Positions 11,467-55,643 of a DNA stretch of 64,000 nt are shown piece after piece. The first letter of the stretch is position 1, and each line of letters begins with the position of its first letter. The stretch covers positions 160,001 through 224,000 of the forward strand of contig CM000434.1 of NCBI GenBank assembly GCA_000165345.1, written 5' to 3'. Under the pieces are notes generated by a model that was not told the origin of the DNA, searched no databases, and saw only the letters and a program-made list of their open reading frames with translations. The position numbers and the translations under genes were made by a program.

Positions 11467-12525
11467 TTAGAAATCTGCATTCAAATCAAACTTTTGGTCA
11501 TCTTGATTGACCATAACTCCAGCCATTTGATATTCACCAACTCTCTTTTCGAAGAAGTTAGTTTTACCTTGAAGTGAAATAAGGTCCATCCAATCAAAAG
11601 GATTAGAAACGTTGTAGATTTTTGGAATATCCAAGGCAAAAAGTAATCTATCAGCAACAAATTCAATATATTGGGCCATAAGTCTCGAATTCATACCAAT
11701 AAGATCAACAGGAAGAGAGTCACAAAGAAAGTTTCTTTCAACTTCAACAGCTTCTGATATGATTTGTTGTACTCTAGGAGCTGGTAATTTAAATTTAAGG
11801 GCTTTATATATTAAACAAGCAAAATCAGCATGGAGACCTTCATCACGACTAATAAGTTCATTAGAAAATGTGAGTCCAGGCATAAGTCCACGTTTTTTAA
11901 GCCAAAAAATTGCACAAAAGCTACCAGAAAATAGAATTCCTTCAACAGCACAGAATCCAATAATTCTTTCAGCAAAAGATCGCTCAGAATTCATCCATTT
12001 AGTTGCCCATTCTGCTTTCTTTTTTACAGCTTCAATATGAGAAATTGCTTCAAAGAGCATTTGACGTTCTTTAATTTCAGTAATATATCTATCAATAAGT
12101 AATGAATAAGTTTCACTATGTATTTGTTCAATAGACATTTGAAAAGCATAATACATTCTAGCTTCCGGTATTTGTATTTCTCTAAGGAAATTTACTGCTA
12201 AGTTTTCCATAACAATACCATCACTTGCAGCAAAGAATGCTAAAACATATTTGATAAAATGTCTTTCAGGGTCTTTAAGACTTTCCCAATCTCTAGTATC
12301 TTGACTTAGATCAATTTCTTCAGTAACCCAAAACGACGCTTCAGCTTTTTTATACATTGACCAAATATCTTTAATTAATTCTTTCAATTCATTTCTATTT
12401 TCTCGGCTGTATTTAAGCATTGGTTCATTAACTTGATTTATTTTTACTTCATTCACAAGTTTTTCAATATTTTCTTCATCTTTTGTTTCCTTTGTTAAAA
12501 TTACATTATTATTTTCCTCTGTCAT
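11467..12525 (-). CDS. RNR2: Ribonucleotide reductase small subunit R2 (class Ia, di-iron/tyrosyl radical)
   Basis: Canonical R2 motifs are present: [23 protein letters not shown] (Asp ligand), [10 protein letters not shown] (Glu/His ligands plus radical Tyr), [11 protein letters not shown] and [10 protein letters not shown]. The C-terminal R1-binding tail ends FDLNADF. ATG verified. Confidence 0.9.
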
Positions 12526-13419: not shown

Positions 13420-14439
13420 ATGAATGAATCAAAGAAAGAATTATTAGAACAGCAAAAAAATGAATCAATCTTATTAGATAATCCTTTTAGATGGGTTTTA
13501 TTTCCAATAAAATATAGTAGATTATGGAGTTTGTATAAAAAATATGAGGTATCATTTTGGACAGCAGAAGTAATATCACCAATGGAAGATAAGACAAAAT
13601 TAATGAATATGGACGAAAAATTACTTGATTATATTGAAATGGCCTTTGCAAAACGTATTTATATTGATAATACATGCTTAGATACTGTATTGTTAACATG
13701 TGAATTATTAGGACAAGTACAAGTACCAGAAGCAAGAGGTTACTTTTCATTTACAATGTGTATGGAGAATATATATAAGGAATTATTTATGAATTATGTT
13801 GAAATGATACGTAAAAATAAGGAAAAGATTGAAAGGACAGATGAAGTGGAAAAGAAGGATGAGAATAATTTAAATAGTAAAATATCTAAAGAAGAATATG
13901 AATATAATTTAGAGAAGAAATTGAATGAATTAGAAGATTTTACAAAAATGAAGGAATTAGTTGGTAATTTTTACGATGAAGATACTTTATTTAGTGAAAA
14001 ACTTATCTATTATGTAATAATTAAAAAGATATTCTCATCTAGTATTCATTTACTTAGATTATCTTTTTCAATGAGAAATATATCAGAATCTGAATTACCT
14101 ACTCAACTTTGTGATGGTTTAGATAGAATACGTAGAGATGAACAATATCAAGTTGAGTTTTGTTTAAGTATTGCAAAATCTATGAAAACTAAACCAAGTA
14201 ATGATCAAGTAGTTAATTTATTAGAGCAAGCTATTATGTTAGAGAAGAACTTTATATTTTCAATTGTAGATCCACAAGTTCTTCAAATTGAAAGAGAAGA
14301 TATTGTTGCTTTTCTTTTATTTAATGCTGATGAAATACTTGTAGATTTAAAGTATCCAAGACAATTCAATGTTTCTAATCCATTCATAAATATTATGAAC
14401 GATTTTCCGTGCTCCTTCTCAAGAAGAAGCTGTTGCTAG
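13420..14439 (+). CDS. Divergent R2-like protein lacking several di-iron ligands and the radical tyrosine (catalytically inactive R2 paralogue, Rnr4/R4-like); 3' end uncertain
   Basis: Aligns with R2 throughout (NPFRWVLFPIKYSRLWSLYKKYEVSFWTAEV, QVPEARGYFSF, FNVSNPF). The ENIHSEMY equivalent is ENIYKELF (His to Tyr, radical Tyr to Phe), and the helix that carries a Glu ligand in R2 lacks it. The listed ORF ends ...FPCSFSRRSCC. The +1 frame continues to 14530 ending ...SQDF, just before an N gap. Confidence 0.65.
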   Translation: MNESKKELLEQQKNESILLDNPFRWVLFPIKYSRLWSLYKKYEVSFWTAEVISPMEDKTKLMNMDEKLLDYIEMAFAKRIYIDNTCLDTVLLTCELLGQVQVPEARGYFSFTMCMENIYKELFMNYVEMIRKNKEKIERTDEVEKKDENNLNSKISKEEYEYNLEKKLNELEDFTKMKELVGNFYDEDTLFSEKLIYYVIIKKIFSSSIHLLRLSFSMRNISESELPTQLCDGLDRIRRDEQYQVEFCLSIAKSMKTKPSNDQVVNLLEQAIMLEKNFIFSIVDPQVLQIEREDIVAFLLFNADEILVDLKYPRQFNVSNPFINIMNDFPCSFSRRSCC

Positions 14440-17689: not shown

Positions 17690-20600
17690 ATGTCAAAATA
17701 CACATTCACTGAATATAGAAGATTGAATAATTCTATATTCAGATTGGATGTATTTCCATTCATTACTATTTATATTGTTTTAATTTCAATCTTATTAGGA
17801 GAAATCTTCAGTTTAAGTAAAACAATCACTTATAAAGATGTTTTTGATTCATTCATTTATTTAATAAATTTCATACAAAATCTTAATAATTTAAATAATA
17901 CCATAAATTCGGTACCAGTACAAAATAATGAAATATTTAATGATTTAATATCAAATAATACAAATTATTTAAATGCTTCTGAATTGGATGATTCAAATTT
18001 AAGTGAAGAATTACAACTTATTATTGATAATGTTCCAATTAAATATATTGTTGCAATTTTTATCACAATTTTAATAAATTTATTAACTTTTCTTATGACT
18101 CAATGGAATTTGAAATTTAAAAGTATTATTTGTTTTAGTAAAATAAAAAAAAAATCAAATGGAACTTGTACAAGTTTAAATAATAAAACCACTACACATA
18201 TTATGGTAAATAGTTCCAAATATCCAAGTGAACTTTGTCCTTTAAAATATTCAACATGTATTGAACATGTTGGAAAACTTAAAGATTTTTATTCTTTAAC
18301 AAAAATTAAATCATGTTCAATTATTAATATGAACAAATCTTTTATTATACAAGTTGATGCAATTGATTATTATAAATATAAATCAGAAATTGAGAAAATT
18401 CTTTTAAAAAATATTAATAAAAGTGATAATTCCAATTTATTACCAAATTCTTCAAATATTAATTGGATAAAATTGATTAATTATGAAAAGAAAACTTTTA
18501 TATATAATAAATCAAAAGAAACTTTTATTAAAGCAAATTATCCAATAAATCTTCCAATAAAATCATATTTTGATCAATTAATACATAAAGGTGGTTTAAA
18601 TATGAATGAAATTATACTTCATAATAATTTATATGGAATTAATAATTATGAAATACCAAAAGAAAAATTTCTGGATTTATTTATTGAACAAATTATATCA
18701 CCTTTTTTCTTATTTCAAATATTTTGTGTATTACTATGGATACTTGATGAATATTGGCAAATGAGTTTATTTACTTTATTTATGTTATGTACTTAAGAGG
18801 CTCAAATGGTATTTAGAAGACTTAAAGAATCTGATGAAGTTAGAAATATGAGAAGACCATCATGTTTTATTCTTGTATATAGAGAATATACTTGGAAATA
18901 TATTAATACTGATCATTTATTACCTGGTGATATTATTGCAATTTCATCCACAATTTCTTCCAATTCTTTAAAAAATAAGAATTTTGATGAAAATAATAAT
19001 AATAATAATCAAGATGAAGAAGCAGTTTCTATTGCTCCTTGTGATTTTGTATTATTATCTGGAAGTATTACTGTAAATGAAGCAATGCTTACTGGTGAAT
19101 GTACTCCAAAAATGAAAGTATCAATGAATAATGACGAAGATGAAAATGAACAAGATAATAAATTGAATGAAAAGACTTTTGATATTGATGGATTTAAAAA
19201 TCATGTAATATTTGCAGGTACCAATATTATACTTACAAGATCTTCAATTGTTACAGAAAATAAAGAGTTCCAATCTATTATTAAAAAGATTTCAAATGAA
19301 TACCATAATTGTTATAATGTTGATAATATGAACTCTATTAAGAATCCAATGAACTTTAATGAAAAGTATAATAATAATGTCACTTCTTCTTACATTAAAT
19401 ATGATAATGATAAAATGATTTGTATTGGATATGTTCTTAGAACTGGATTTAATACTTATCAAGGAAAATTAATCCGTACAATTTCATCATCAGCTGAAAA
19501 GATCTCATCTAACAGTCTTGAATCACTAATTTTCTTAATGATGTTAATTTTTTGCTCATTAATAGCATCTTCTTATGTACTTTATTATGGAATTAATGAT
19601 CCTTCCAGAAATAAATTCAAATTAATTATCTCCTGCATTCACATTATAACTTCAGTTATTCCTCCAGAATTCCCCATCACACTTTCTGTTGCTGTAACTA
19701 TGGCAGTTGTTCAATTAACCAAAAAAAAGATTTATTGTACTGAACCATTTAGAATTCCATTTGCTGGTAAACTTAGAATATGTGCTTTTGATAAAACTGG
19801 TACTTTAACTAGTGATAAAATGATACCACATGGATTATTTGGAATTAACTTGTATAATAATGATGATACTTCTTGTATTACTTTTGATGATAATGATAAG
19901 TATAGTAATAACAATGAAGATAAGGATGAGATGAACAATAAAAAGTTAGCATCAGTATCGGGATCAAGGCAAGTGTTGGGATCAGAACCAATATCCAATT
20001 CTTCTGTTGATATACCATATTTATCTGATCTTATTATGGGATGTTGTAATGGACTTTCACTTAATGGAAAGACCTTGGTTGGAGATCCTATGGAAAAATC
20101 CATCAAAAAGAAATCATCCTGGAGAATTCATCACTCATCTGAAAATAATTATCATAACATTAAAGATAATTCAACATTTTCAATAGTTAGAAGATATCCT
20201 TTTTCACCAGAAGAACAAAGAATGACCAATATTGGAATTTTGCATATTCCTTCAGAAAAACAAAATTCATCATCAAGTAAATCTCAAACTTCTTCATCTT
20301 CATCTCAATCTCTATCTCCGTCTCATTCTGTAAAATTTCATAAAAGTCTTTCAAAACCTGATCCAAAAACTTATGGTCTTGTCATTTCTAAAGGAAGTCC
20401 AGAAATGATGCTTCAATTCTTTAAAAAAGATCCAGAATTTGATCAAAATTTATACAAAAATGTTGTACATGAATGTACTAAAAAAGGGTATCGTATATTA
20501 GCACTTGGTTCAAAATATTCTTGTATTAATGAAGTTAATAATCATCATTTAAAAAGAGAATTCTTTGAAAATGATTTAATATTTTGTGGTTTTCTTGCAT

Positions 20601-22072
20601 TATATTGTCCAATTAAAAAACATTCCAAATCTGTTATTCAAGAACTTAATCAAAGTAATCATCAATGTATTATGATTACTGGTGACAATATTCTTACAGC
20701 TTTCCATGTTGCAAAAAATGTATCAATTACCAATAATTGTAAAGATATACTCATTTTATCAAAATCTGATAATGAAAACTCTAATCATATTAATTATATA
20801 TGGAAATATTCAAATGGTAATATTTTTAATAAATTTGATAATAATTTAACTCATTTAATTCATATTAATAATGAATTTAATATTGGTATTACTGGTAATG
20901 TATTCCAATCTTTTATTGAAGACTTCAAAGAAACCAAAATACTTGAACAATTTCTTTTATTTACAAAAATATATGCAAGAATGTCTCCAAAAAATAAACA
21001 AACTCTTATTAATCTTTATAATAATATGGGTAATATGACTTTAATGTGTGGAGATGGTACCAATGATGTTGGTGCTTTAAAACATTCTCATGTTGGTATT
21101 TCTCTTCTTTCAAATGAATCATCATCAGATTCTAATAATAAAGATAATAATAATTCTCCATTTAATATTAAAAAAAATCAAAAATCCAACTTTTTTGAAA
21201 TTAAAAAAGATATTGAAGCCAGAATTAGACGTGGTGAAAAGCTTACAAAAGCTCAAATTCAACAAGAAATCTTGAAAGAATTCCAAAATATGGATGAAAT
21301 ACCAAAAGTAAAACTTGGAGATGCTTCTATTGCTTCACCTTTTACATATAAAGGTGAATCTCCCAATTGTATTATTAAACTTGTTAGATATGGAAGATCA
21401 ACTTTAACCACAGTATTATTAATGTATAAATTAATGGGATTAAATAGTATTGTATCTGCATTTTCTATGAGTGTATTAGCTCATGATGGAGTTAAATTTG
21501 GTGATTTTCAAACTACTGTAGAATCCATTATTATGAGTGGCTTATTCTTTCTTGTACTTAAAAACAAGCCAGCTAAAAAGCTTGTTCCACAAAAACCACC
21601 AAATAGTATTTTCAGTCCTATGATATTTTTATCATTTATTATTCAAGCATTAATTCATTTATTTGTTATTTATTTTGGATGGAAAATTTCATATTCTTTA
21701 ATGCCATTAAACTATTCAACAAATATTGATGGACCTTTTGAACCAAATATTATTAATACAACAATGTATTATTTATATACAGCTTGTCACTTAGCTTGTT
21801 TTCTTTCAAATGCACAAGGTCATCCATTTACTACTCCATTATCTGAAAATAAATATCTTATTTACACTTCAGCTTTAGTTATTTCATTCTTAATTACTTC
21901 AATTCTAGGAATATTTCCACATTTAAATATATTATTTTCATTGGTAACTTTACAAAGTAAATATTATCAATCAATTCTAATACTTCTTGTATTATTTGAT
22001 ATTTTTGGTACTCTATTAATTAATCAATTATTTAATCAACTTCATATTTACTTTGACAAATGCAAACATTAA
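17690..22072 (+). CDS. P5A-type cation-transporting ATPase (Spf1/ATP13A1-like); one reading frame interrupted by an in-frame TAA at 18794-18796
   Basis: The two listed ORFs 17690-18796 and 18806-22072 are in the same frame, and the M2 helix region continues across the stop (...FTLFMLCT*EAQMVFRRLKESDEVRNM). P-type motifs ICAFDKTGTLT, ITGDNILTAF and GDGTNDVGALK are present, plus the P5 M4 motif SVIPPEFPITLS. The low-complexity insert NENNNNNNQDEE is in the A-domain region. Confidence 0.75.
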
Positions 22073-32330: not shown

Positions 32331-35303
32331 TCAAGAAAAATCATATCCAAATACAGTTCTCTTTGGCTGAGCTGATGATCCTTTACTTTCACACCATTTA
32401 ATAAATTCTGGATTACTACCACATGTGTATACATCATTAACATAACAGCATCCACATGATGTTGCTCCATCAGAAAAAGATATTACACCAATTGGATTTG
32501 GCCAATATAATGGAGGATAGAAAGTTCCAAGCCAACCAATAACAAAGTAAAATAAGAGTAAAATTCCTGATAAGATTCTAAAAGTCCACAATAATTTCTT
32601 TTCACGAAGACTTTTAATACGATTCTTGAAATATATTTTAATTTTGTTCTTTATTGGTATCTTTTCAGTTGGAATACGATCAATCAAAATGGTTAAATCT
32701 GTACGCCTTTTTATTCCATTTTCATCTACAATTAAACCAAGACTATCAGTAATTTCTCCTTGGATCTGTTCAATCTTCATTTGTTTAATTAAAGCATTTT
32801 TCTTTATACGTTGGTTTTTTCTCCATTGCTCAGCGATTTTGGCATTTCTTTTTTCAATCTTTCTTATTTTCTTCTCCTCAAGTTGACGATTAATCCATTC
32901 TTTATCTTGTTTCATAAAAAGTCGAAATAATGGAAGAGCTGCCATTCTATTATATCTATCTAATCTATCCTCAGGAGAACAACCTTTACAAGCTTTCATT
33001 GTAGCGAATGTATAAAGTATACCAACTACAAAACCACCAATATGCGCCCATGGATTTGTTACACCTGTAAATGATAAAATCATACCAATAATAAGCGAAA
33101 ATAAACTAAAAATGAACATAAACATTGGTGCAGGAAGATTATTCCAATTCTCAAAAGTATATGGAATTGAAGCTGCTGTAATTCCAAATAAACCACCAGA
33201 ACTTCCAACAGTTAGTGAACAAGGAGATATTACTGCTACTGCTAGATTACCACCAACACCTGATAAGAAGAATAATAAGAAGAAACGTAAAATGCCCCAA
33301 TCTGGTTCAATCATATATCCTAATTGAGCTTGAGATATTACATTAAATCCAATATGTATAAATCCAGTATGCATCCACATTGCCCAAAACATACGAATCA
33401 TTTCACCTTGTCTTAATTCATTAACAACTAAACCTCCAAGAGCACTTAAAGTTTTTGAACAAGGTCCAAGCATAGAGTTCATACTGAAAGATTCAACATA
33501 TACACCACCACAATTACCATTATCCCATTTATTAAGACGATTGTAAATGAGAGATTGGAAGAAAACACCAACTAGAGCAAATGATGTTGTTAATACAACA
33601 AATATTCTTCCATGTATTGGATTAACCCATTTTCTGAATTTGGAAGCAATTTTTGTTTGAGAAATTGGGTCTAATTCACTAACATGATATGATTTATCAA
33701 CTTTAATAGCATCTAATGGAAGTTCTTTTGCATAAGGTCCAACAGCAATATCAATTTGAGTTTCTTCTCCATAAAGCCATTTAAGATGTCCAGTAAGTCC
33801 ATGTTCATCAAGTTTAAATGTATTACCATGTTCAAGACTGGTCGAACTTTTAAGCTTTTGTTGTTGGTTTTGGATTTCACCCATCTTTACCATTTGTACA
33901 CTAGTTCTACCTACAGCTTTGCCTTCATTTGCAAGTTCTTCATCATAATTAACAACTTGAGATTCCGATACTCTATGATTTGTTGTTGGTATTGTTAATC
34001 CATCTGGTCCTAATAAATTATTATTATTACCTAAAACTATTGGTACACCTAATCCAGAAATGGCTCCTTGATTTCCATTATTTTCATCATTTTCTTCTGG
34101 TTCAATATTTACCATAGCTTCAACAATTGTTTTAAAGCCTTTCTTTTTTGAAATGGACCGTCTTAGGTTATTCATTCCACTGGATTTACTAATATTTCCA
34201 TTGGATGATAATCTTGTTTGAATAGAATTTGGAGCCGGAGCTGGAGCTGGAGCTGGAGCTGGAGTTGGAACAGGAGTTTGAGCTGAAGCTGGAACAGGAA
34301 CTGGTACCGGTACTATAACTGGAGCTGAATTTTTATTGTGTTTTGGGACAATCTTAGTATTTAAAATTGAGTTTCTCGGTCTTGTATCATTCGGATTTGG
34401 AATATCAACAACAACTTTATTCCCAGAAAAGGAATCACCTCTATTCAAGCTATTTTTATGTTGATTACTAAATTGATCATTTCCAATTTTTCTCTCTTGA
34501 ACCTCATCAGAAGGCATAATTACCTCCATTCCATTAATTACTTCGGTACCTCCTAATACAGCCCCTCCTGCTTTGCTATAAAGAGAAGTTGAAGTCCTTT
34601 TTTCTCCTGGTTTATTTGAATGCGGAAATTCACTTTCTGTTAAATCTCTACCTCTTGATTGGAATTTCTTTGGAACATTCTTTCTCTCATCAGAACTGGC
34701 TGGAGGAACACTGAATAATCTTAATTCATCATTGGTTGGATGTCTTCTTTCATTTAAATCTTCATCTTTATTGTAGTCTGGTTGTAATCTTAAAGATTTT
34801 CTTGGAGAAGGTTGAGCTGAATTAACTTCTTTATCTGTTGAAATTTTTTTCACTAAAAGTGGAGTAGGAGTAGCATTACTGGTATTATATTTATTTTCTG
34901 TTGATCCTCCTGGTGTTTGTTTTGCCTTAGTTATTATTGGAAAGGAATTCTTAGTTGAATATTTTGATCCATTTTGATTTTTTGGAGAAACTTTCATTGG
35001 TTTATTCATTCCAAATAAATTATTGGCCTTTGAATCAACACCTAAATTACTTCCACTTAATGATGAATTTCTTTTGAATGATGAAGATCTTTGTGGTGAT
35101 AAAGGAGTTATACTTGATCTTGGAGAAGAACCTGATCCACCACTAAATTTTGGCATTGGAGCACGCGATCCTCCTCCACTAGTACCAGCGCCAAATATAG
35201 GTGATCCTGGTGATGTTGGAGATCCTGATGTACCACCACCTGGGATTGTTTTTACTATGGGTCTTTTTCCTCCATCTTTGAAAACAAAATCGGACATATC
35301 CAT
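32331..35303 (-). CDS. Rhomboid-family intramembrane serine protease with a long N-terminal low-complexity extension and a C-terminal extra TM plus Cys-rich tail
   Basis: ATG verified (MDMSDFVFKDGG). The rhomboid core carries WMHTGFIHIGFNV (TM2 H..N), GSSGGLFG (GxSG catalytic Ser) and PWAHIGGFVVG (catalytic His). The N-terminal ~560 aa are Gly/Ser/Pro-rich with PVPVPVPASAQTPVPTPAPAPAPAPAP. After the core come a Lys/Arg-rich coiled segment, one more TM and SCGCCYVNDVYTCGSNPEFIKWCESKG. Confidence 0.75.
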   Translation of the reverse strand: MDMSDFVFKDGGKRPIVKTIPGGGTSGSPTSPGSPIFGAGTSGGGSRAPMPKFSGGSGSSPRSSITPLSPQRSSSFKRNSSLSGSNLGVDSKANNLFGMNKPMKVSPKNQNGSKYSTKNSFPIITKAKQTPGGSTENKYNTSNATPTPLLVKKISTDKEVNSAQPSPRKSLRLQPDYNKDEDLNERRHPTNDELRLFSVPPASSDERKNVPKKFQSRGRDLTESEFPHSNKPGEKRTSTSLYSKAGGAVLGGTEVINGMEVIMPSDEVQERKIGNDQFSNQHKNSLNRGDSFSGNKVVVDIPNPNDTRPRNSILNTKIVPKHNKNSAPVIVPVPVPVPASAQTPVPTPAPAPAPAPAPNSIQTRLSSNGNISKSSGMNNLRRSISKKKGFKTIVEAMVNIEPEENDENNGNQGAISGLGVPIVLGNNNNLLGPDGLTIPTTNHRVSESQVVNYDEELANEGKAVGRTSVQMVKMGEIQNQQQKLKSSTSLEHGNTFKLDEHGLTGHLKWLYGEETQIDIAVGPYAKELPLDAIKVDKSYHVSELDPISQTKIASKFRKWVNPIHGRIFVVLTTSFALVGVFFQSLIYNRLNKWDNGNCGGVYVESFSMNSMLGPCSKTLSALGGLVVNELRQGEMIRMFWAMWMHTGFIHIGFNVISQAQLGYMIEPDWGILRFFLLFFLSGVGGNLAVAVISPCSLTVGSSGGLFGITAASIPYTFENWNNLPAPMFMFIFSLFSLIIGMILSFTGVTNPWAHIGGFVVGILYTFATMKACKGCSPEDRLDRYNRMAALPLFRLFMKQDKEWINRQLEEKKIRKIEKRNAKIAEQWRKNQRIKKNALIKQMKIEQIQGEITDSLGLIVDENGIKRRTDLTILIDRIPTEKIPIKNKIKIYFKNRIKSLREKKLLWTFRILSGILLLFYFVIGWLGTFYPPLYWPNPIGVISFSDGATSCGCCYVNDVYTCGSNPEFIKWCESKGSSAQPKRTVFGYDFS

Positions 35304-36110
35304 TTTATCTTTTCCTAATAATTATATTTTTTTCTTCTTTATTTATATTAATTGGTAGAAAAGGGTTTATTTTTGTGAGAAGGGGATTAATATTATATTA
35401 AAAATTAATCTCAGGGAGTTTGAATAGATACAAAAACTTTTCCCCCAAGTAAATATATTTATATTTTAATATATTCTTTTCAAATTATATTAATCCTTTA
35501 ATTTCTCTTTCTTTCTCGTTATTGCTATTATTTATTATTATCCTCAAATATAAATAAATATTCTTCTTAATAACTATTCGATATTGATTTTGAATGAATT
35601 CTCCTTACAAACTTTTCTTTGTTCACTTCTAATTCGTTAATTCAGTCTGAATCTTCTGTAATATTCAAATGTTAATATTCAATTATTTTCAGTAATTAAA
35701 TCTTATAAATCATTGATTTCTAGCTAGTTATTTTATTCTGTACTCTTCAAACCCAAAAAAAAAACTACTTAACTTGGTCCTAACTTTATTAAATTAAATT
35801 TCCAAATCCTCTAGGTAGCACTATTCAAAAATATTTGTATTTAAAAAAGGAAATTTTCTGATTTACTTGTACATTACATTAAAATATGTAGTCCCCTAAT
35901 CACATATATATATACTTATATTTATCAACTTTTTTTCCTCCTCCTCTTTTTAAAATTATCTGTTTAATATTGGTTACACTTTCACAATTATAAGAAGATT
36001 AAGGAAAAAAAAACCAATAAATTACTGTAAACCCATTTATTGACTTTTTTACCCCCACCCTGCATTCCTGCTTCACTTACACACAAAAAGTCTTTAATAG
36101 ACGGATGAAT

Positions 36111-36156
36111 TTTGGCGGGAAATCCGCAATTTTTTTGCATGCTACAAAAAGGCGGG
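36111..36156. promoter_or_regulatory. E2F-like motif cluster: TTTGGCGGGAAAT, then GCATGC, then AAAGGCGGGTTG
   Basis: TTTGGCGGGAAA is the canonical E2F/DP site consensus. It lies ~800 bp upstream of the rhomboid start (minus strand) in a 2 kb region with few ORFs. Confidence 0.4.
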
Positions 36157-36439
36157 TTGTGGGGGAGGAATAATGAAAATTTAAAAAAAATAAAGAAAAA
36201 AAAATTGGAAGATCGATAAGTAACTTCTTATTTGCATTGATATATTTATGATATGACTGTTATTAAAAAAGATATTTAGTAAATATAAAGAGTAGGAAAA
36301 ACTAATATTCTAATCTTTCTTATCATAATTAATCAAATAATTTACTTTGTGACTTTCACCCAGAAATTTTTTGAGATTATAAAGAATTTCCCGCCAAAAA
36401 TGGGAATACAGTTATAATAGAAAAATAATAGTGGAATAG

Positions 36440-36655
36440 TTAATTATGAACATTATTATTTGATGAGATACTATTAGATTGTTGAGAAGTTAAGATTCTG
36501 GAGTTATTTTCTTGGGAGCTTATATTGAGATTAGTTTGGATGGAATTTAAATCTTCGTTTTCTTGTAGTTGTTTTGCTTTGTTTTTAATTCTCTCTTTTA
36601 AATCATTAATATCTTGAATTTTTAGTTCAATCAGAGTTCCTGGTCGAGTAAGCAT
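36440..36655 (-). CDS. Small hypothetical ORF (71 aa), possibly coiled-coil; weak
   Basis: It begins LIELKIQDINDLKERIKNKAKQLQENEDL. It lies in an otherwise ORF-free 2 kb region. No family assignment and it could be spurious. Confidence 0.2.
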   Translation of the reverse strand: MLTRPGTLIELKIQDINDLKERIKNKAKQLQENEDLNSIQTNLNISSQENNSRILTSQQSNSISSNNNVHN

Positions 36656-37261
36656 ATTTAGATTTTTTGAAATTGGTTACTTTGTTTCTTTTCTTTTTTT
36701 TAATTTGCGTTATTTGTGATGTACGATCTACCCCTTTTTTAGCTTAGTTAATAATATCAATAAGATTTTTTTTAGATTAGAAAGCTTACTCAAAGTGGTT
36801 TATATTGATTTAATTTAATCCAATTATACTTTATTAAATAGATTTTGATTGAATAGTGATTTTAATGGAATCTACTCGAAGAAATTAATACTTGGAGTTT
36901 AAAGCTAAAAATAACCAGAAACCTGCTTACTTAATTACTTATTTTTCTAATAATTCTTTATAAATTGTTTTCAAAATCTTTATTCTATGCAATTCAATTC
37001 CTTTTTTAAAAGAAAATATAATATTCTAACTAAAATTGGCGCCAAATTTTATTAACCCCAAGTTAATTTTTTTCTCTTTCATGGGAATGATTATTTTTAA
37101 ATGCTAATTGAATGAAGTGGCGCCTACCCCACGTATTAAAAACGCCAATTAGAATTTGCCTGAATTAAATAGAAAAAAAAATTATTTCAGTAGAATAATT
37201 AAAATTCTAGAGAAAAATGCTATTGGATATGAATATTAGAACGAAATGCTAAATCTAATGT

Positions 37262-38038
37262 TTAATGTCTATCACCTAAAGCATTTCTAATCCTATTTCT
37301 GCTCTCTTCGTTTGAGTTTGTTGTAGTAGGTATGTTAGAAACAGGAGCTGGATGATTATTAACTCCGAGTGTAATAACGCCTTTAGAGTCAATAGAAATA
37401 GAGAGACTCTCTGGTGTTTGGCCTGACAAAGCGATATTAATCATTTCAGGGTTGATTGAGGTGTTCTTAAGATTCAATAATTCGGATTGAGTTGTAATTT
37501 GTTGTCCTTGGTTTTGTATTGAATTCAAATTTGTGGATACTAACACATTTCCTGGGGTTGAATTGTTTGGTATTGTATTATCTAATCCATTACCAACTAC
37601 GTTTCCATTCATGGTACCATTATTAGAATTTGTAATTTCTGTAATCTGTGCTTGTTGAGGAGTTACAGGATTTGAATGTTGAGTATTAAAATAGTTTGTT
37701 CCACATTGACATGACGGAAATTGTTGTTGCATTGGACATGTACAGCAAGAACAAAACATATTACCTTGATTCATCATTCCTGTTCCTGTTCTTCTTGAGA
37801 AATCGCAAATACAACAATGTTGAAGTCTTTGGCAGAACAAACATCCTGAAATGTTTGACTGGTTATCAAAGTAGTAATTCTGATTATTATTTAATGATGA
37901 TGGTGTCATACAACCGCATCCTTGCTGTTGTATCATCCTCATCATTCTACTATTTGAACTTTGAGGTAATACTGGCAATAATCTATCTTGTTTTCCGCAT
38001 TGGCATGTAATTTGATTTGCATTATTTGAATATGACAT
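37262..38038 (-). CDS. Cys/Gln/Asn-rich hypothetical protein (258 aa)
   Basis: ATG verified. Multiple CxC/CC clusters (CQCGKQD, CGCMTP, CLFCQRLQHCCICDF, FCSCCTCPMQQQFPSCQCG) are followed by an Asn/Thr/Gln-rich tail. The family is unclear. Confidence 0.4.
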   Translation of the reverse strand: MSYSNNANQITCQCGKQDRLLPVLPQSSNSRMMRMIQQQGCGCMTPSSLNNNQNYYFDNQSNISGCLFCQRLQHCCICDFSRRTGTGMMNQGNMFCSCCTCPMQQQFPSCQCGTNYFNTQHSNPVTPQQAQITEITNSNNGTMNGNVVGNGLDNTIPNNSTPGNVLVSTNLNSIQNQGQQITTQSELLNLKNTSINPEMINIALSGQTPESLSISIDSKGVITLGVNNHPAPVSNIPTTTNSNEESRNRIRNALGDRH

Positions 38039-38785
38039 TTTGCTTTTATTTAAAACAAATATTATACTTGAAGTTATAATTTGGCTCTAATGTTTTTTTT
38101 CTTTTTGAACTTTATTATTTTTATCACCTTAGCTCTATTAACTTTGTCCAAATCCTTTTTTTTTACTTATTTTCGAGCACGAGCTTTGCAAATTTCTTTA
38201 TAAGATTTTCATATTTCCCCTCTTTTCCCACTAAATTGTTTACTTAAAAATATACGAATATATATATGTATATATTTACGCCATCTCTTTATTTATTAAG
38301 AGTTCAAACTTAACTTAATCGGCCTCAACTATTTCATAACAATTCTAATCTTTCAAAATCCGACTTAAAACCATTCTTTTACCTTTTGTAAATCTTCGCC
38401 ATTTATTTCTGACTAGTCCTCTTTTACTTAATTATAATTAACTCAATTTTCCCGCCCAAACATGCCTACTTTATTTCGAGTAAATGGTTTGTTACATGCA
38501 ATCTATTTAATCTTTTTTCTTTCTTTTTTTTGCTAATTAAGAAAATCAATCACTTGTAAATATTTCCCGCCAATTATTCCCACAACAATCCAACAAAGTA
38601 TAAATGAATCAGAGATGTCATCATATGACATTTTGATCAGTTAGAATTGAAATAAAATGACTAGAAAAACTGCAATTACTTTAATTACAGTAATTTATAA
38701 CAATTCAGTTTAAAATCTTAAAAGAAGTCCATATATAGAAACAATAAATCCTAATTTCAAGTATATAATTAATATAATAGTATTT

Positions 38786-39670
38786 TCAATTACGTGATCT
38801 ACCTAACAACAATATAAATAGTATTACTAGTAATCCAACAGCCAGTCCAGAAGATGTACCTAAAATGATATTAAACTTGTTATCAGATGAAATTGTACAG
38901 TTTCTACCATAAAATCCTTCTGCACATTTACAATAATATCCATCGTTGCCTATATTAAAACATTCACCACTATTCTGGCATATTGGTTCTAACTGAGTAT
39001 CACAAATTCCCTCGCATCCTGAACATTCCACAACCTGTCTTAACTGATTAGATGACGGACATGCAGTACCTCCATTCATTGCCTCCCTCACAACTACTCT
39101 ATATCTTGATTTGGTTCCCTCGCATAAAAACTTTGAGCAACCAGTCCAAGGAGACCAAAAAGAGAGAACACAATCGACTGGGCATGGAGAAGAATTACAT
39201 GAAGATGTTTCTTTAAGCAAAGAATCACAACCAGGAGCAGAGTGGGTCAATTCTCTTGTCCTGATTGTAAGCCCTCCGTCACAAGAAGCTGAGCAAGGAG
39301 ACCAACTTCCCCAATCAGTGAATCCACATGGCAAACACTCCACATCCGAATTACAAGCAGAAATCTGGGAAGTTATAGTACATTCTAATCCTCCTGCCAT
39401 AACCTCATTTAATGGATATCTCCATCTATAAGTTGTTCCACCATTGCAAGTACTTGTACAAGGAAGCCAAGATGACCATTGAGAATACTCACAATCCAAT
39501 GTAGATATTGCAAATCTTGTAGTTGAATACACTCCTGCTTCATTTGGATAAATTAATCCTACTGATTCTGGTTTATATGAGTGCACTCCACAATGAAATA
39601 TGGTTCCCAATGACCATAATGACTCTCTTACAAAAACGTCAACTCCGAACTTTTTGTTAATCAATATCGA
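38786..39670 (-). CDS. TSP1-EGF adhesin gene A, exon 2: 3 thrombospondin type 1 repeats, 1 EGF domain, a TM helix and a short tail
   Basis: TSP1 motifs: YSQWSSWLPCTSTCNGGTTYRWR, FTDWGSWSPCSASCDGGLTIRTR and SFWSPWTGCSKFLCEGTKSRYR. EGF: CDTQLEPICQNSGECFNIGNDGYYCKCAEGFYGRNC. TM: LAVGLLVILFILLLG. The listed ORF starts on a TTG codon with no upstream ATG before a stop, consistent with being a downstream exon. Confidence 0.6.
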   Translation of the reverse strand, partial: SILINKKFGVDVFVRESLWSLGTIFHCGVHSYKPESVGLIYPNEAGVYSTTRFAISTLDCEYSQWSSWLPCTSTCNGGTTYRWRYPLNEVMAGGLECTITSQISACNSDVECLPCGFTDWGSWSPCSASCDGGLTIRTRELTHSAPGCDSLLKETSSCNSSPCPVDCVLSFWSPWTGCSKFLCEGTKSRYRVVVREAMNGGTACPSSNQLRQVVECSGCEGICDTQLEPICQNSGECFNIGNDGYYCKCAEGFYGRNCTISSDNKFNIILGTSSGLAVGLLVILFILLLGRSRN

Positions 39671-39896
<226 letters not shown>

Positions 39897-40889
39897 ATTG
39901 AAAGGTTGACCTGGATTATCAAAATCAAAAGGATAATCTCCACTAACTGTATAACTTGTACCACTTAATAATACACCCGAACTTAAACAATATGAATTAC
40001 TTGACAAAGTTGCAAAAAATCCATTCATTCTATAATAAAACTGACTCTGATCGCTTGTAAATACTGCTACTGTACCTCCCCATCCGTATCTTTTATCATT
40101 AACTGGATACATACTTGCTGAATGTAGATGTATTTCTAGTTCTTCTGGCCAAGATTTATAATTTTTTGGAATTCTATCACCATTTGGTACTCCAGATTTC
40201 TCATCAATTCCGGTACTATTTACATAATACAAATTTTTATCATCAAAATAGTATCTTTGTTGAAATTCATCCCAGAAATAAGTCCTTCTATAAGGATCTG
40301 CCAAAGGAACATTTCTTGTAATTTTATATTTACTAAAGTTATTTTGTCCATTACCAAAAGTTAATTTATTCACATTTGAATACACTATGCTATGACAAGG
40401 ATAATATGGTCCACTTCCTGAAATATAAAAGTAAAACCCTCCTGGCCATCTTAATTTCTCAACTACCAAGTCAAGATCCATCAATTTTGGCTTATACGGA
40501 AATGGAAAGTAAGCATAAGATCTAGCCCATCTCTCTTCTGAAGTATATCCTGTAGATTCCACATCTACTGTTTGTGCTGCAAAATTTATCATCAACTTAC
40601 AGTGGTATAAATCACCATTCTGAATTGTTACCAAAGTTTCTTTATCATTTTCTGCGTTAAATTTACCCACAATCCTAAAAGATACTCCAGAATACCAAGG
40701 TAGCTTATTTGAACTAAATGTATATACTAACCCTTCACTGGTAATATCTTTCCATGCTTTTGTCCAACTGAAACTTGGTGGTAAAGAATTTATTTCTAAA
40801 ATATTAAATATAAGAATATGTATTAATATAAAATATAAAATTCTTCTTATTTTCATAAACTTTAAATCATATTGTCTAAATTCTAACAT
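39897..40889 (-). CDS. TSP1-EGF adhesin gene A, exon 1: signal peptide plus a ~330-aa N-terminal extracellular domain
   Basis: The ORF-track start at 40901 is a TTG; the first ATGs in frame are at 40889 and 40856. The signal peptide is MKIRRILYFILIHILIFNILEINS. The exon ends ...DNPGQPFN immediately before GTAAGT, a consensus 5' splice donor. Coordinates +/-2. Confidence 0.55.
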
Positions 40890-41479
40890 TTTTCTTTTCA
40901 ACTTTGTTTTGATTACATTGAATTAAAACCTTTTATTGGTGTTTTGAAACTAATTAAAATTAATTCTTCTTTCCATTCATGAATTATTCAATCCTTATTT
41001 ATAGCCAATACTTTTACTTAATTTAAAAGAATACACCAAATGTGATATTATTCAGCAACCTTTAAAAAATATAATTTTATTAATAATATAATTTTAAATT
41101 TAATACTTTTCTCTGTGTGTGTAATTTATCCTATTATCAACTCCTTTTCCCATGTTCAATTTAGATTAATATTTATTTCAATATTAAACAGCAGGTAATA
41201 GGTACCATTTCAGCCCGCCAAAACATGCCCCACTTATTTCCAATATTATTATCAATGCTGTATAAGTAATATAAATAATATAATAAGAATAAATATAAAT
41301 ATGATCCATGTAATAATATATTAGATAAATTAAAATTTATCTATAATTTACCATTATTTTAGTTAAATTAATAATTTATTAGAATTTGTGAAGGATAATA
41401 AATATTAATCCATCGAAATAAGCTTTATGTTTTAATTACAATTATCCAGAATTAAGGTTTAATAAAGAATTCATGCTCA

Positions 41480-41610
41480 ATGTTGTCTTGCCATATTATT
41501 AATGGCATAATATTAATTGGTTTATTATTTTTTTTAAGATTTGATAATATAAGTTCACAAATTGCAGATTTTCGTCTGCCTGAAACTCGCTTATGCACCA
41601 ATCCATATAC
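41480..41610 (+). CDS. TSP1-EGF adhesin gene B, exon 1 (signal peptide)
   Basis: ATG at 41480 encodes MLSCHIINGIILIGLLFFLRFDNISSQIADFRLPETRLCTNPY. The exon ends 2 nt into a codon, immediately before GTAAGT at 41611. An in-frame stop lies upstream at ~41453. Confidence 0.6.
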
Positions 41611-41687
41611 GTAAGTTTGACGTAATTTTCTTTAAAAAAAATAACTTTATTTGATTATTTGTTTATATTTTAAAAATGAATTTCTAG
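41611..41687 (+). other. Predicted 77-nt intron of TSP1-EGF adhesin gene B
   Basis: GTAAGTTTGAC ... AT-rich ... AATTTCTAG. The splice restores the frame exactly into the listed ORF, whose annotated start at 41803 is a TTG (Leu), not ATG. Confidence 0.55.
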
Positions 41688-42930
41688 TTTTGGATTTGCA
41701 ATAGAACAAGATACTGATATTCAATTAATAGATGATGATATTTGGCCTTTAAATCAAGTCTTCTCTGCCGGTGGTAGTATTTCTGACAATGGATTCCAAA
41801 TATTGTTTGCAACCGCAAAAAAAAATTCTTATGAATTGATCATTTCAGTTTATCCATTGCTCACTACAGTAGTAAGAGAATGTACTTATGAAGGAAAAGT
41901 TGTAAGAAGGCTTAAATCCGTAGTAGAACATTCCCCAAGATTTGAAAAATGGCCATTCTTTGATAAGTGGGTTATTAGCTTTCAAAGACAAGAATATGGA
42001 ATTTCAATTTCTTTTAACCAAGGTTATACTGAATCTTTATTTTGGAAAAGATGTCTAAATGAACCAATAGTCAGCGTTAAGGTAGAATCAAAAGATGCCT
42101 ATCTTTCAGCTGACCAAGTTGATTGTATCGTATCAGAATGGAGTTCTTGGTCCCAATGTAGTTCAAGTTGTCAGATAGGTACTAGATCAAGAACTAGATT
42201 AATATTAAGACCAGCTTCTTTTGAAGGTACCACATGTCCAAACTTGATAGAAAATGAAGGATGTAACACTAGCATATCTTGTGAAGATTGTGCCTATTCT
42301 TCTTGGTCTCCTTGGAGTGAGTGTAGTGTTACTTGCCAAGGTGGATTTCGTTCTCGAACTAGAAAGCTGATTTGGAAATCTGACATTAAAGGGAGATGTG
42401 AAGATAATGAATCAGATATAGAATCTTGTAATGAACAAAGTTGTCCAGTAAATTGTAGACTCTCAAGCTGGACTTCATGGAGTATATGCTCTTCTACTTG
42501 TGGTCCAGGTAATAAGATGAGATATAGAATTATTTTAGCTCAATCAGATCTTGGTGGAGTACAGTGTCCGACAGAAAAGGAAATTACTGAGCGTGCTTCA
42601 TGTCAACTTCAAGAATGCGAAAAATCTTGTTCAACTGGAGAAATTTGCAAAAATGGTGGGACTTGTATTGATATCCCTAATAGCGGTTTTTCTTGTGAAT
42701 GTGCTGAAGATTATTTTGGTAAATTTTGTGAACACAAGAAATATAGCTGGTGGGTTTATTTTGTTTTTTGCATTGCTACACAAATTATTATTGGAGCAAT
42801 TGTAAAGAGTACATTCCTTTCAAGACCTGCACCAATTACTGAAACGCCAGTTACTTACAACCAAGAATATGCTTTCAATGATTATCCGACAGCATTTGAT
42901 CAAAATACTGACATTTCTGGTGTTTTTTAA
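41688..42930 (+). CDS. TSP1-EGF adhesin gene B, exon 2: N-terminal domain, 3 TSP1 repeats, 1 EGF, a TM helix and an aromatic-rich cytoplasmic tail
   Basis: TSP1 motifs: SEWSSWSQCSSSCQIGTRSRTR, SSWSPWSECSVTCQGGFRSRTR and SSWTSWSICSSTCGPGNKMRYR. EGF: CSTGEICKNGGTCIDIPNSGFSCECAEDYFGKFC. TM: WWVYFVFCIATQIIIGAIV. The tail is ...YNQEYAFNDYPTAFDQNTDISGVF. Confidence 0.7.

Positions 42931-46577: not shown

Positions 46578-55643
<9,066 letters not shown>

Follow-up and report, generated by a model that had tools for sequence, protein, structure and literature searches.

CpRom1, a predicted ROM4/ROM5-clade rhomboid protease of Cryptosporidium parvum, and two neighbouring candidate substrates: an adjacency best explained by historical accident

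Introduction

Rhomboid proteases of the ROM4/ROM5 clade are the main adhesin sheddases of Toxoplasma and Plasmodium. In Cryptosporidium parvum, the sole demonstrated cleavage by a rhomboid is that of GP900 by cgd3_980. When the ROM4-type C. parvum rhomboids were put into a heterologous assay, one failed to express and its counterpart cut neither GP900 nor TRAP-C1; the accession numbers given in that paper are ambiguous. According to published work, CpRom1 (cgd6_760, named CpROM3 in Gao 2021) localises to the pellicle and to the posterior pole, as does TgROM5. Vanni et al. 2026 (PMC13095730, Table 2) count CpTSP8 and CpTSP9, both assigned there to micronemes, among the candidate substrates of C. 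parvum rhomboids. John et al. 2023 (PMC10034466) describe the N-terminal domain of CpTSP8 as galectin-like and see the analogues of MIC2/TRAP in CpTSP1 and CpTSP6 rather than in TSP8 or TSP9.

Here we analyze the cgd6_760 to cgd6_800 interval of C. parvum chromosome 6, within a window of 64,000 nucleotides (GenBank assembly GCA_000165345.1, contig CM000434.1, positions 160,001 to 224,000, forward strand), in whose coordinates all features are given. CpRom1, CpTSP8/CpMIC1 and CpTSP9 are already described, and the literature already proposes both adhesins as candidate substrates of a rhomboid. The original prediction, which viewed the locus as a protease encoded beside its substrates, is partly supported: we consider it likely that CpRom1 is a competent enzyme of the ROM4/5 clade, with reasonable but unproven substrates that lie next to it by accident.

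Results

CpRom1 is encoded on the minus strand by a mono-exonic ORF of 990 aa (32331–35303), whose identity and length agree with the account of CpRom1 in PMC13095730. The best local alignment of the ORF to a C. parvum protein gave 100% identity, and global comparison with the same protein revealed V331L, K391T and one PA unit (2 aa) fewer. The Pfam Rhomboid domain PF01694 was matched at aa 633–769 (E = 2.9e-25). An AF2 model of the six-TM catalytic core (aa ~565–771; 32991–33611, minus strand), built on an 80-sequence alignment, reached a pLDDT of 90.6 and a pTM of 0.84; searched with Foldseek, it matched GlpG with a TM-score of 0.70–0.79 (on target) and iRhom1/2 with E = 3e-7. The active-site motifs are VG-S701-S702-GG in TM4, WA-H754-IGG in TM6 and H645-x4-H650-x3-N654 in TM2. 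Ser702 (codon at 33198–33200, minus strand), which aligns with the GPAG position of iRhom, is invariant across the 80 homologues together with H645, H650 and R637; N654 and His754 (codon at 33042–33044, minus strand), the latter aligning with the AHISG motif of iRhom, are conserved in at least 90% of them. The claim of an intact rhomboid core with the GSSGG serine and the TM6 histidine is thus borne out by motifs, Pfam, conservation and the GlpG-like model, and the predicted fold and residues point to a catalytically competent “6+1” rhomboid.

In an exhaustive HMMER search, gregarine rhomboids were closest to CpRom1, followed by proteins named ROM4 and ROM5, and two published trees agree with this placement. 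Sequence comparison therefore supports the assignment of CpRom1 to the adhesin-shedding ROM4/ROM5 clade and not to the PARL type, which the original prediction had named as the placement that would speak against adhesin processing.

The ~560 residues ahead of TM1 (33624–35303, minus strand) are of low complexity, rich in S, P, G, K and N, and poorly conserved in the genus alignment apart from short islands such as SDFxFKDGGKRP, PTNDELRLFSVPP and GHLKWLYGEET. A Pfam search of this extension returned no match, and the full-length AF2 model, poor overall, had pLDDT below 50 across it. From the canonical rhomboid topology the extension is predicted to be cytoplasmic. Bertuccini 2024 and Vanni 2026 place the N-terminal region of CpRom1 outside the cell, which contradicts the N-in topology assumed here; the extension has been reported as surface-exposed and released on extracellular vesicles. 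Within it, TRF detected a (PV)n/(PA)n tract of period 6 (aa ~328–358; 34230–34304, minus strand), which is C. parvum-specific, absent from the orthologues in the genus alignment, and variable in length between C. parvum isolates (one protein is without one PA unit). The N-terminus had been called atypical; its length and tract are as described, but a long extension is unusual rather than unique, as ROM5 of Besnoitia and Cystoisospora is also long.

A Lys/Arg-rich linker with a net charge of +17 and a long helix connects TM6 and TM7 (aa 775–903; 32595–32981, minus strand). It is highly conserved within Cryptosporidium in the genus alignment, its helix 801–845 kept a pLDDT of ~77 although the full-length model is poor, and the linker is predicted to be cytoplasmic. 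By hydropathy, the protein ends with TM7 (aa 904–926) and a 64-aa Cys-rich tail (together 32334–32594, minus strand), predicted to be exoplasmic from the canonical topology and the positive-inside rule. All five Cys of the tail are kept in seven aligned Cryptosporidium orthologues. This C-terminus had likewise been considered atypical, which it is not: TM7 occurs in 70 of 79 close homologues and a tail with at least four Cys in 47 of 79, so both are typical of the clade.

Our gene models of 990, 625 and 457 aa match the lengths of cgd6_760, cgd6_780 and cgd6_800. CpTSP8 (cgd6_780; 38786–40889, minus strand) has two exons. Exon 1 (39897–40889) encodes a signal peptide and the N-terminal domain, including the published N-glycopeptide YYFDDKNLYYVNSTGIDEK (aa 212–231); exon 2 (38786–39670) encodes, according to Pfam and the gene model, the end of that domain, three TSP1 repeats, an EGF domain, a TM helix (38804–38872) and a 5-aa basic tail, GRSRN, and contains the published glycopeptide ELTHSAPGCDSLLK. 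Splicing at the 226-nt intron between them (39671–39896; GTAAGT...TATAG) yields the published 625 aa. A perfect (GA)34.5 microsatellite lies inside this intron (39778–39846). CpTSP9 (cgd6_800; 41480–42930, plus strand) likewise has two exons, and splicing at its 77-nt intron (41611–41687; GTAAGT...TCTAG) yields the published 457 aa. A signal peptide is encoded by exon 1 (41480–41610); by Pfam, exon 2 (41688–42930) encodes the N-domain, three TSP1 repeats, an EGF domain, a TM helix (WWVYFVFCIATQIIIGAIV, 42748–42810) and an acidic tail of ~39 aa. Four species share this TM helix and tail in conserved form. Both adhesins are type I proteins, and with 36% identity (E = 9e-35) they are old head-to-head paralogues with a shared layout of galectin-like domain, three TSRs, EGF and TM helix, separated by a common divergent intergenic region of 590 bp (40890–41479).

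Both adhesins are plausible as candidate rhomboid substrates, and CpTSP8 is the better of the two because the outer half of its TM helix is rich in Gly, Ser and Ala, with a conserved NII[LV]G-x-S...A[VI]G pattern. In CpTSP9 the outer half is bulky and aromatic (WWVYFVF). The original prediction of rhomboid-favoured residues in both helices stands for CpTSP8 but not for CpTSP9, whose IIIGAIV lies at the cytoplasmic end and not where rhomboids cut.

The composition of the CpTSP9 helix also fits the alternative that CpTSP8 and CpTSP9 are not substrates of CpRom1, being shed by another protease (microneme/pellicle CpRom3, cgd3_980; apical CpRom2, cgd7_3020; or a sheddase outside the rhomboid family) or undergoing no intramembrane cleavage at all; CpRom1 would then have other targets, for instance TRAP-C1, adhesins of the TSP6 type or further surface proteins. 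The microneme-assigned TSP group co-localises with CpRom3 rather than CpRom1 (PMC13095730), and it is CpRom3 that has the demonstrated activity on GP900. The 3–5-aa tail of CpTSP8 speaks against a role like that of TRAP, coupled to the motor and then capped and shed, and T. gondii MIC14 and MIC15 are TSR-TM microneme proteins that have no rhomboid motifs and are not shed. The adhesin-shedding record of ROM4/5-clade enzymes, the conserved small-residue-rich outer half of the CpTSP8 helix, and the reported presence of CpRom1 where capped adhesins are removed, at the posterior pole and pellicle, all speak against this alternative, which we regard as unlikely.

Measured from the rhomboid ATG, the CpTSP8 stop lies at 3.48 kb, the CpTSP9 ATG at 6.18 kb and the CpTSP9 end at 7.63 kb. 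Two single-TM TSP1-EGF adhesins had been expected 3.5–7 kb away; domains and distances agree, but the ORFs on which this was based are 3′ fragments downstream of the introns. CpRom1 and CpTSP8 have separate promoters, and two minus-strand genes stand between them: one encodes a CDC26-like APC subunit of 71 aa, unrelated to adhesion (36440–36655; Pfam PF10471, E = 6.6e-6), whose C. ubiquitum orthologue occupies the corresponding position, and the other a Cys-, Gln- and Asn-rich protein of 258 aa without a Pfam match (37262–38038), with positional orthologues of 253, 295 and 158 aa.

Could selection nevertheless maintain this linkage, with CpRom1 as a dedicated sheddase of galectin-TSR-EGF adhesins, for instance in a chromatin domain whose co-regulation is driven by shared E2F-like elements? 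The arrangement is as old as the Cryptosporidium ancestor, and orthologue synteny is kept in C. ubiquitum, C. bovis and C. muris, but only as part of a genus-wide collinearity of the whole 20-kb block; because every flanking gene is equally syntenic, this conservation is uninformative. Outside the genus the linkage is absent in three other apicomplexan lineages: around the ROM4/5-type genes examined, we found no TSP1 gene within 10 kb in Porospora and Besnoitia, nor in the 12.8 kb surveyed in Cardiosporidium. Rhomboid–TSP proximity has a chance p of about 0.02–0.06, a marginal signal. Three of ten published candidate substrates (cgd6_670, cgd6_780 and cgd6_800) lie less than 35 kb from CpRom1, cgd6_670 at 27 kb, and simulation gave p of about 0.005 for at least two candidate loci within 35 kb, a threshold chosen post hoc; this clustering leaves some room for non-random linkage.

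The window contains four copies of the E2F-like TTTGGCGGG motif where 0.02 would be expected; three of them are located upstream of the rhomboid or in the intergenic region of CpTSP8 and CpTSP9, which holds one at 41214–41222. However, unrelated genes, RNR and P5-ATPase among them, also carry the motif upstream, and GGCGGG is a generic promoter element in the window. At the level of coarse transcript patterns, the pattern “low in oocyst, high intracellular” is common to CpRom1 and CpTSP9, whereas that of CpTSP8 runs opposite. Given also that eukaryotic gene order seldom encodes function and that the two intervening genes are of housekeeping type, a functional neighbourhood appears improbable to us.

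Discussion

The notion of a protease–substrate neighbourhood survives insofar as both adhesins are published candidates; the adjacency itself, with two genes in between, separate promoters and a marginal p, finds its best explanation in a historical accident, which persists because Cryptosporidium genomes are very highly collinear. Gene closeness is weak evidence and adds almost nothing to the case for CpRom1 cutting CpTSP8 or CpTSP9.

By analogy with TgROM4/5 and PfROM4, CpRom1 is most likely a protein of the zoite plasma membrane or pellicle whose active site (Ser702/His754) opens to the outer leaflet. There it may cleave type I proteins, brought to the surface by micronemes, within their TM helices, and such cleavage would release ectodomains during gliding and invasion. 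The N-terminal extension and the Lys-rich linker would face the cytoplasm and could serve regulation or trafficking, while TM7, on the canonical topology and the positive-inside rule, would put the Cys-rich tail outside. CpTSP8/MIC1 and CpTSP9 are reasonable, if unproven, members of the substrate pool.

Compared with E. coli GlpG, CpRom1 has the same six-helix fold, Ser/His dyad, TM2 HxxxxHxxxN and conserved Arg in L1 at an identity of about 18–20%. The Trp of the GlpG WR motif is Ile in CpRom1, which additionally has TM7, a 560-aa N-terminal and a 220-aa C-terminal region.

CpTSP8 and CpTSP9 share with TRAP/MIC2 a signal peptide, TSRs, a single C-terminal TM helix and micronemal assignment. 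Their description as TRAP-family adhesins was nonetheless overstated: by Pfam they are without a vWA/I domain, carrying an EGF and a galectin-like N-terminal domain instead, and their tails differ, that of CpTSP8 being 5 aa and basic and that of CpTSP9 acidic and without a subterminal Trp. CpTSP7 (cgd5_4470) and the gregarine PgTSP_EGF proteins resemble them in layout, with TSR repeats, EGF and TM helix; the galectin-like domain is common to CpTSP7–9. In contrast to CpTSP8/9, CpTSP7 is on chromosome 5 and, by gene ID, not near any rhomboid, and therefore the TSR-EGF-TM layout is not generally linked to rhomboid genes.

In contrast to T. gondii ROM4/ROM5 and P. falciparum ROM4, CpRom1 has no demonstrated substrate or activity, carries a species-specific PV/PA tract in its N-terminal extension, and has that extension reported on the surface and on extracellular vesicles, against the canonical topology. 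Its TM6–TM7 linker of ~150 aa is strongly basic, compared with roughly 60–110 aa in most relatives. Long extensions recur in Besnoitia and Cystoisospora ROM5, with 550 and 804 residues, respectively, before the catalytic Ser. ROM4 and ROM5 are the best named matches of CpRom1, and they share with it GSSG in TM4, AHxGG in TM6, the “6+1 TM” architecture with an exoplasmic Cys-rich tail (predicted in CpRom1) and, for TgROM5, the reported posterior-pole localisation.

CpRom1 is predicted to be a catalytically competent rhomboid of the ROM4/ROM5 type

With a G+C content of 22-33%, the window contains long, mostly uninterrupted ORFs. The ORF at 32331-35303 on the minus strand encodes a 990-aa protein that matches a protein recorded under C. 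parvum (P0001, 988 aa), from which it differs in a global comparison only by V331L, K391T and one PA unit. Orthologues with 56-77% identity were found in C. ubiquitum, C. canis, C. bovis and C. ryanae. In the literature, the 990-aa mono-exonic rhomboid of chromosome 6 is cgd6_760, which has been named CpRom1 (Vanni et al. 2026, PMC13095730; Bertuccini et al. 2024), CpROM3 (Gao et al. 2021) and ID2/CpRom (Trasarti 2007).

Residues 633-769 of CpRom1 match the Pfam Rhomboid family (PF01694, E 2.9e-25; 89.6 bits, cut-off 22.6), and sequence matches in the PDB comprised iRhom1/2 and GlpG. The catalytic motifs VG-S701-S702-GG in TM4 (G700-S-S702-G, corresponding to GxSG) and WA-H754-IGG in TM6 are present, as is the HxxxxHxxxN motif of TM2 (H645-x4-H650-x3-N654). 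A word-indexed search with the rhomboid core recovered only two fragments, and an exhaustive HMMER search, which provided 79 homologues, was used instead. In the resulting 80-sequence alignment R637, H645, H650 and S702 never vary, and at least 90% of the sequences share N654 and H754. Half of the L1-loop WR motif is kept, with Ile636 replacing the Trp next to the invariant R637. An AlphaFold2 model of residues 540-801 built from this alignment reached a pLDDT of 90.6 and a pTM of 0.84. Foldseek searches with the model retrieved rhomboid-superfamily structures only, including GlpG (probability 1.00, TM-score 0.70-0.79 normalised on GlpG), with iRhom1/2 best by E-value. In contrast to iRhoms, which carry GPAG at the position aligned to the catalytic serine, CpRom1 has GSSG. 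The motifs, the residue conservation, the confident model and the GlpG-like fold therefore show that the catalytic core, with its GSSGG serine and TM6 histidine, is intact, as originally noted. Judged from sequence and model, CpRom1 is a member of the rhomboid protease family (MEROPS S54) with predicted activity. No proteolytic activity of cgd6_760 has been reported in the literature, where the recombinant protein was found in inclusion bodies and one ROM4-type C. parvum paralogue failed to express.

In the HMMER ranking the C. muris orthologue came first, followed by rhomboids of the gregarines Polyplicarium, Porospora, Ancora and Selenidium, and then by ROM4 of Hepatocystis and Cystoisospora and ROM5 of Cardiosporidium, Cystoisospora and Besnoitia. 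We based clade placement on these ranked hits with source names (top clusters), which constitute best-hit evidence and not a tree, and on two published trees (ML and NJ) that group cgd6_760 with TgROM4/5 and PfROM4. PARL-type identity is ruled out by the extra helix, which follows the core in CpRom1 (6+1) and precedes it in PARL, by the ROM4/5 best hits and by the reported lack of a PARL gene in C. parvum; the placement outside the PARL-type clade on which the original prediction depended was thus borne out, the nearest named relatives being ROM4 and ROM5. Together, the ranking, the trees and the 6+1 layout assign CpRom1, on sequence grounds, to the apicomplexan ROM4/ROM5 adhesin-sheddase clade and not to PARL/ROM6 or ROM1-3. 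Apicomplexan rhomboid sheddases are regarded as drug targets. A close gregarine-like relative of CpRom1 (P0013/P0161) is labelled "rhomboid-like protease 4 [Hylaeus volcanicus]" and comes from a bee assembly, where it lies on a contig of 883 kb; this record may represent an apicomplexan (gregarine) sequence inside an insect genome record.

Terminal extensions and membrane topology of CpRom1

Both termini of CpRom1 had been described as atypical, which proved only partly correct. TM7, a hydrophobic helix at residues 904-926, and the 5-Cys tail that follows it are highly conserved in the genus and typical of the clade: TM7 is found in 70 of the 79 close homologues and a tail with at least four Cys after it in 47 of 79, with the recurring pattern FSG...C.CC...WC...C. 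The N-terminal region of ~560 aa, on the other hand, is indeed long, placing 701 residues before the catalytic Ser against a median of 251 in close homologues, but it is not unique, as ROM5 of Cystoisospora has even more (804) and that of Besnoitia comes near (550). This region is rich in S, P, G, K and N, contains no domain detectable in a Pfam search and, short islands excepted, is poorly conserved across the genus. The feature that does stand out is the length and strongly basic charge of the TM6-TM7 linker (~130 aa, +17). None of the other Cryptosporidium orthologues examined has the PV/PA tract (34230-34304; residues ~328-358), and P0001 differs in it by one PA unit; located within a reported antigenic region, the tract is a potential typing marker.

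Since a full-length AlphaFold2 model from seven Cryptosporidium orthologues was unusable (pLDDT 34.9), we make no structural claims on the extension or the tail. The N-terminal ~500 aa of CpRom1 have been stated to be extracellular (Bertuccini et al. 2024; PMC13095730). By analogy with the canonical rhomboid topology, and given the +17 linker before TM7, we instead predict a cytoplasmic N-terminus. With an extracellular N-terminus, a canonical core would have its active site on the wrong membrane face; if the active site opens to the outer leaflet, the published and the predicted orientation are incompatible.

TSP8 and TSP9 are paralogous two-exon adhesin genes

Two single-pass TSP1-EGF genes lie 3.5-7.6 kb from the rhomboid, which bears out the distances first given, but the ORFs cited were 3' fragments of two-exon genes. 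TSP8 (CpTSP8/CpMIC1, cgd6_780; minus strand) consists of exons 40889..39897 and 39670..38786 and encodes 625 aa, its 226-nt intron reading GTAAGT...TATAG in the spliced model. TSP9 (CpTSP9, cgd6_800; plus strand) consists of exons 41480..41610 and 41688..42930, separated by a 77-nt intron, and encodes 457 aa. Both lengths equal those published for cgd6_780 and cgd6_800, and published CpTSP8 glycopeptides are found in both exons of the TSP8 model. A perfect (GA/CT)34.5 microsatellite occupies 39778-39846 within the TSP8 intron; because this intron was read through, the mechanical ORF 39756-40901 carries a spurious "RERERE" tail. The "frame shift" difference in TSP8 between C. parvum and C. hominis described by John et al. 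2023 (PMC10034466) may relate to annotation around this GA-repeat intron.

The two genes are arranged head to head with a 590-bp spacer, and their products are paralogues (36% identity over the TSR-EGF module, E 9e-35). Each consists of a leader, an N-terminal domain, three TSP1 repeats (TSRs, matched by Pfam TSP_1 and TSP1_spondin), one EGF domain and one C-terminal TM helix. The N-terminal domain had no match in the Pfam search and is described as galectin-like by John et al. An in vivo CRISPR screen reportedly identified CpTSP8/MIC1 as fitness-conferring, and the protein is regarded as a vaccine candidate. The published study examined gave no support for TSP8 or TSP9 being orthologues of MIC15/MIC14, the TSR proteins of Toxoplasma rhoptry discharge.

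TSP8 and TSP9 have several traits of TRAP/MIC2, namely an N-terminal hydrophobic leader, TSRs and a single type I TM helix. The "TRAP-family" label initially given to them nevertheless goes too far. A Pfam search detected no vWA/integrin-like A domain in either protein, and such domains are reported to be absent from Cryptosporidium genomes. The cytoplasmic tail of TSP8 comprises 3-5 residues (GRSRN, TRSRQ, NRS and NRT in four species), and this protein therefore cannot be a motor-coupled TRAP analogue. The tail of TSP9 is acidic, ~39 aa long and ends in F, Y or I; in the orthologues compared it lacks the subterminal Trp and indeed any Trp. John et al. identified CpTSP1 and CpTSP6 as the MIC2/TRAP analogues.

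Gene proximity gives little support to a protease-substrate neighbourhood

Two unrelated genes separate CpRom1 from TSP8: one for a 71-aa CDC26-like APC subunit (36440-36655; Pfam E 6.6e-6) and one for a 258-aa Cys/Gln/Asn-rich protein (37262-38038, minus strand). The rhomboid and the adhesins consequently share no promoter. In the 258-aa protein, which has no Pfam match, CxC, CC and CxxC motifs cluster densely within the first ~115 residues, the remainder being rich in Gln, Asn and Thr; its positional orthologues measure 253 aa in C. ubiquitum, 295 aa in C. bovis and 158 aa in C. muris.

The 10-mer CCCGCCAAAA is common to the CpRom1 upstream region and the TSP8/TSP9 intergenic region, and the E2F-like TTTGGCGGG occurs four times in the window against 0.02 expected (36111-36119, 36390-36398, 41214-41222 and 52868-52876), with two copies upstream of CpRom1 and one between TSP8 and TSP9. 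We rejected both as evidence for a specific shared promoter motif, since most of the window's intergenic regions contain the core GGCGGG or the related GGCGCC, which thus precede such unrelated genes as RNR, P5-ATPase, CDC26, BRCT and others. Intergenic DNA, which makes up ~22% of the window, holds 10 of 12 GGCGGG sites and more than half of the GGCGCC and TGGCGC sites (palindromic elements). This distribution means that TTTGGCGGG is not specific evidence for a CpRom1-TSP unit, and the E2F-like element, the sole upstream motif common to CpRom1 and TSP8/TSP9, is a generic promoter element. Coarse literature data indicate that CpRom1 transcripts are scarce in oocysts and sporozoites and abundant in intracellular stages. 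TSP9 behaves alike, while TSP8 shows the opposite profile, 79% of its signal falling at 2 h.

The proposed synteny check brought out no linkage beyond background collinearity. The order BRCT, TSP9, TSP8, small genes, rhomboid, LRR, next gene, condensin subunit recurs in C. bovis, C. ubiquitum and C. muris, the last a deep-branching species, but every flanking gene of the block is kept in these species too, so that synteny says nothing specific on the rhomboid and the adhesins; Cryptosporidium is known as a highly collinear genus. No TSP1 gene was called within 10 kb of ROM4/5-type genes in Porospora and Besnoitia, and none was seen on the one side examined of the Cardiosporidium gene, whose locus is cut off by the end of its contig.

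We also simulated chance proximity by randomly placing 10 independent TSP loci and three rhomboids in a 9.16-Mb genome. For a hypothesis formed after seeing the data, the probabilities of a TSP-rhomboid pair within 3.5, 7.6 and 10 kb were marginal (p = 0.022, 0.049 and 0.064, respectively). A more generous and equally post hoc statistic, namely that at least two of the eight independent loci encoding the candidate substrates of Vanni et al. lie within 35 kb of a rhomboid, had a chance expectation of 0.5% and is the only hint of non-randomness. One of the loci counted, cgd6_670 (857-5680, minus strand), lies ~27 kb from CpRom1 and encodes a protein of 1607 aa that combines a clostripain-like C11 peptidase domain with EGF domains; Vanni et al. 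(PMC13095730) assign it a C-terminal TM helix and list it as a third candidate rhomboid substrate.

With two intervening genes, no specific shared motif, block-wide synteny and no comparable arrangement near the Porospora and Besnoitia genes, the protease-substrate neighbourhood first proposed is not upheld, and gene proximity gives no real support to the substrate idea. The proximity of CpRom1, TSP8 and TSP9 is most likely historical. The alternative would be a real, co-regulated "invasion island" in which CpRom1 acts as a dedicated sheddase of galectin-TSR-EGF adhesins, including TSP8/MIC1. Linkage of the three genes since the Cryptosporidium ancestor and the presence of the third candidate, cgd6_670, 27 kb away speak in its favour; we consider it improbable. 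The adjacency, which PMC13095730 passes over, can be read off the gene numbers (760, 780, 800). The genes, their domain layouts, the rhomboid clade and the candidate-substrate idea have all been published before.

Other genes in the window

A P5A-type ATPase is represented by two same-frame ORFs of 368 aa and 1088 aa (17690-22072, plus strand) split by an in-frame TAA at 18794-18796, the junction reading …LFMLCT*EAQMVFRRL…. The orthologues of C. ubiquitum (1414 aa) and C. muris (1294 aa) are called as single genes, and the TAA could stem from a sequencing error or lie in a short intron that escaped recognition; a pseudogene or read-through would also account for it. Two ribonucleotide reductase small-subunit paralogues are divergently transcribed (11467-12525, minus strand; 13420-14439, plus strand), one canonical (Pfam E 8.5e-102) and the other much more divergent (E 4e-38).

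TSP8 is the more plausible candidate substrate of CpRom1

The small TM residues favoured by rhomboids, to which the original prediction pointed in both adhesins, lie in the outer to middle part of the helix in only one of them. The TSP8 helix contains N-I-[IV]-[LV]-G followed by Ser/Gly/Ala, an arrangement kept in four species. C. parvum TSP8 has GTSSGLAVG in the outer to middle part of the helix, and C. muris TSP8 reads SIAGV, which resembles the IA|GG site mapped in TgMIC2 and TgMIC6. In TSP9 an invariant, bulky WWVYF forms the outer half of the helix, and the small residues proposed earlier (IIIGAIV) lie at its cytoplasmic end, far from the reach of a rhomboid active site; matches to the cleavage pattern fall mainly at this end, and in C. 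parvum only there. We dropped the Strisovsky-type P4/P1/P2' scan (hydrophobic, x, x, small, x, hydrophobic) as substrate evidence, since the pattern is so permissive that nearly every TM helix fits it; no consistent motif emerged in the work of Vanni et al. either. KY-x-WWVYF, which spans the juxtamembrane stretch and the TSP9 helix (42748-42810), is unchanged between C. parvum and C. muris, and a polar mid-helix Gln or Glu is kept. Such conservation exceeds the need of a simple membrane anchor and suggests that the helix takes part in a TM-mediated interaction.

From what is known of the family, the N-terminus and the basic linker of CpRom1 would reside in the cytoplasm, the active site would open to the outer leaflet with the Cys-rich tail outside, and micronemal type I proteins would be shed from the zoite surface. 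By analogy, TSP8 is a plausible CpRom1 substrate and TSP9 a less likely one; both already appear as hypothetical substrates in Table 2 of PMC13095730. The literature reports no cleavage of TSP8 or TSP9, and the only rhomboid cleavage shown in C. parvum is that of GP900 by cgd3_980. Published assignments place TSP8 and TSP9, as type I proteins, in micronemes and CpRom1 in the pellicle/IMC or plasma membrane, where it was seen at the posterior pole. This arrangement corresponds to the geometry in which TgROM4/5 act on secreted MICs.
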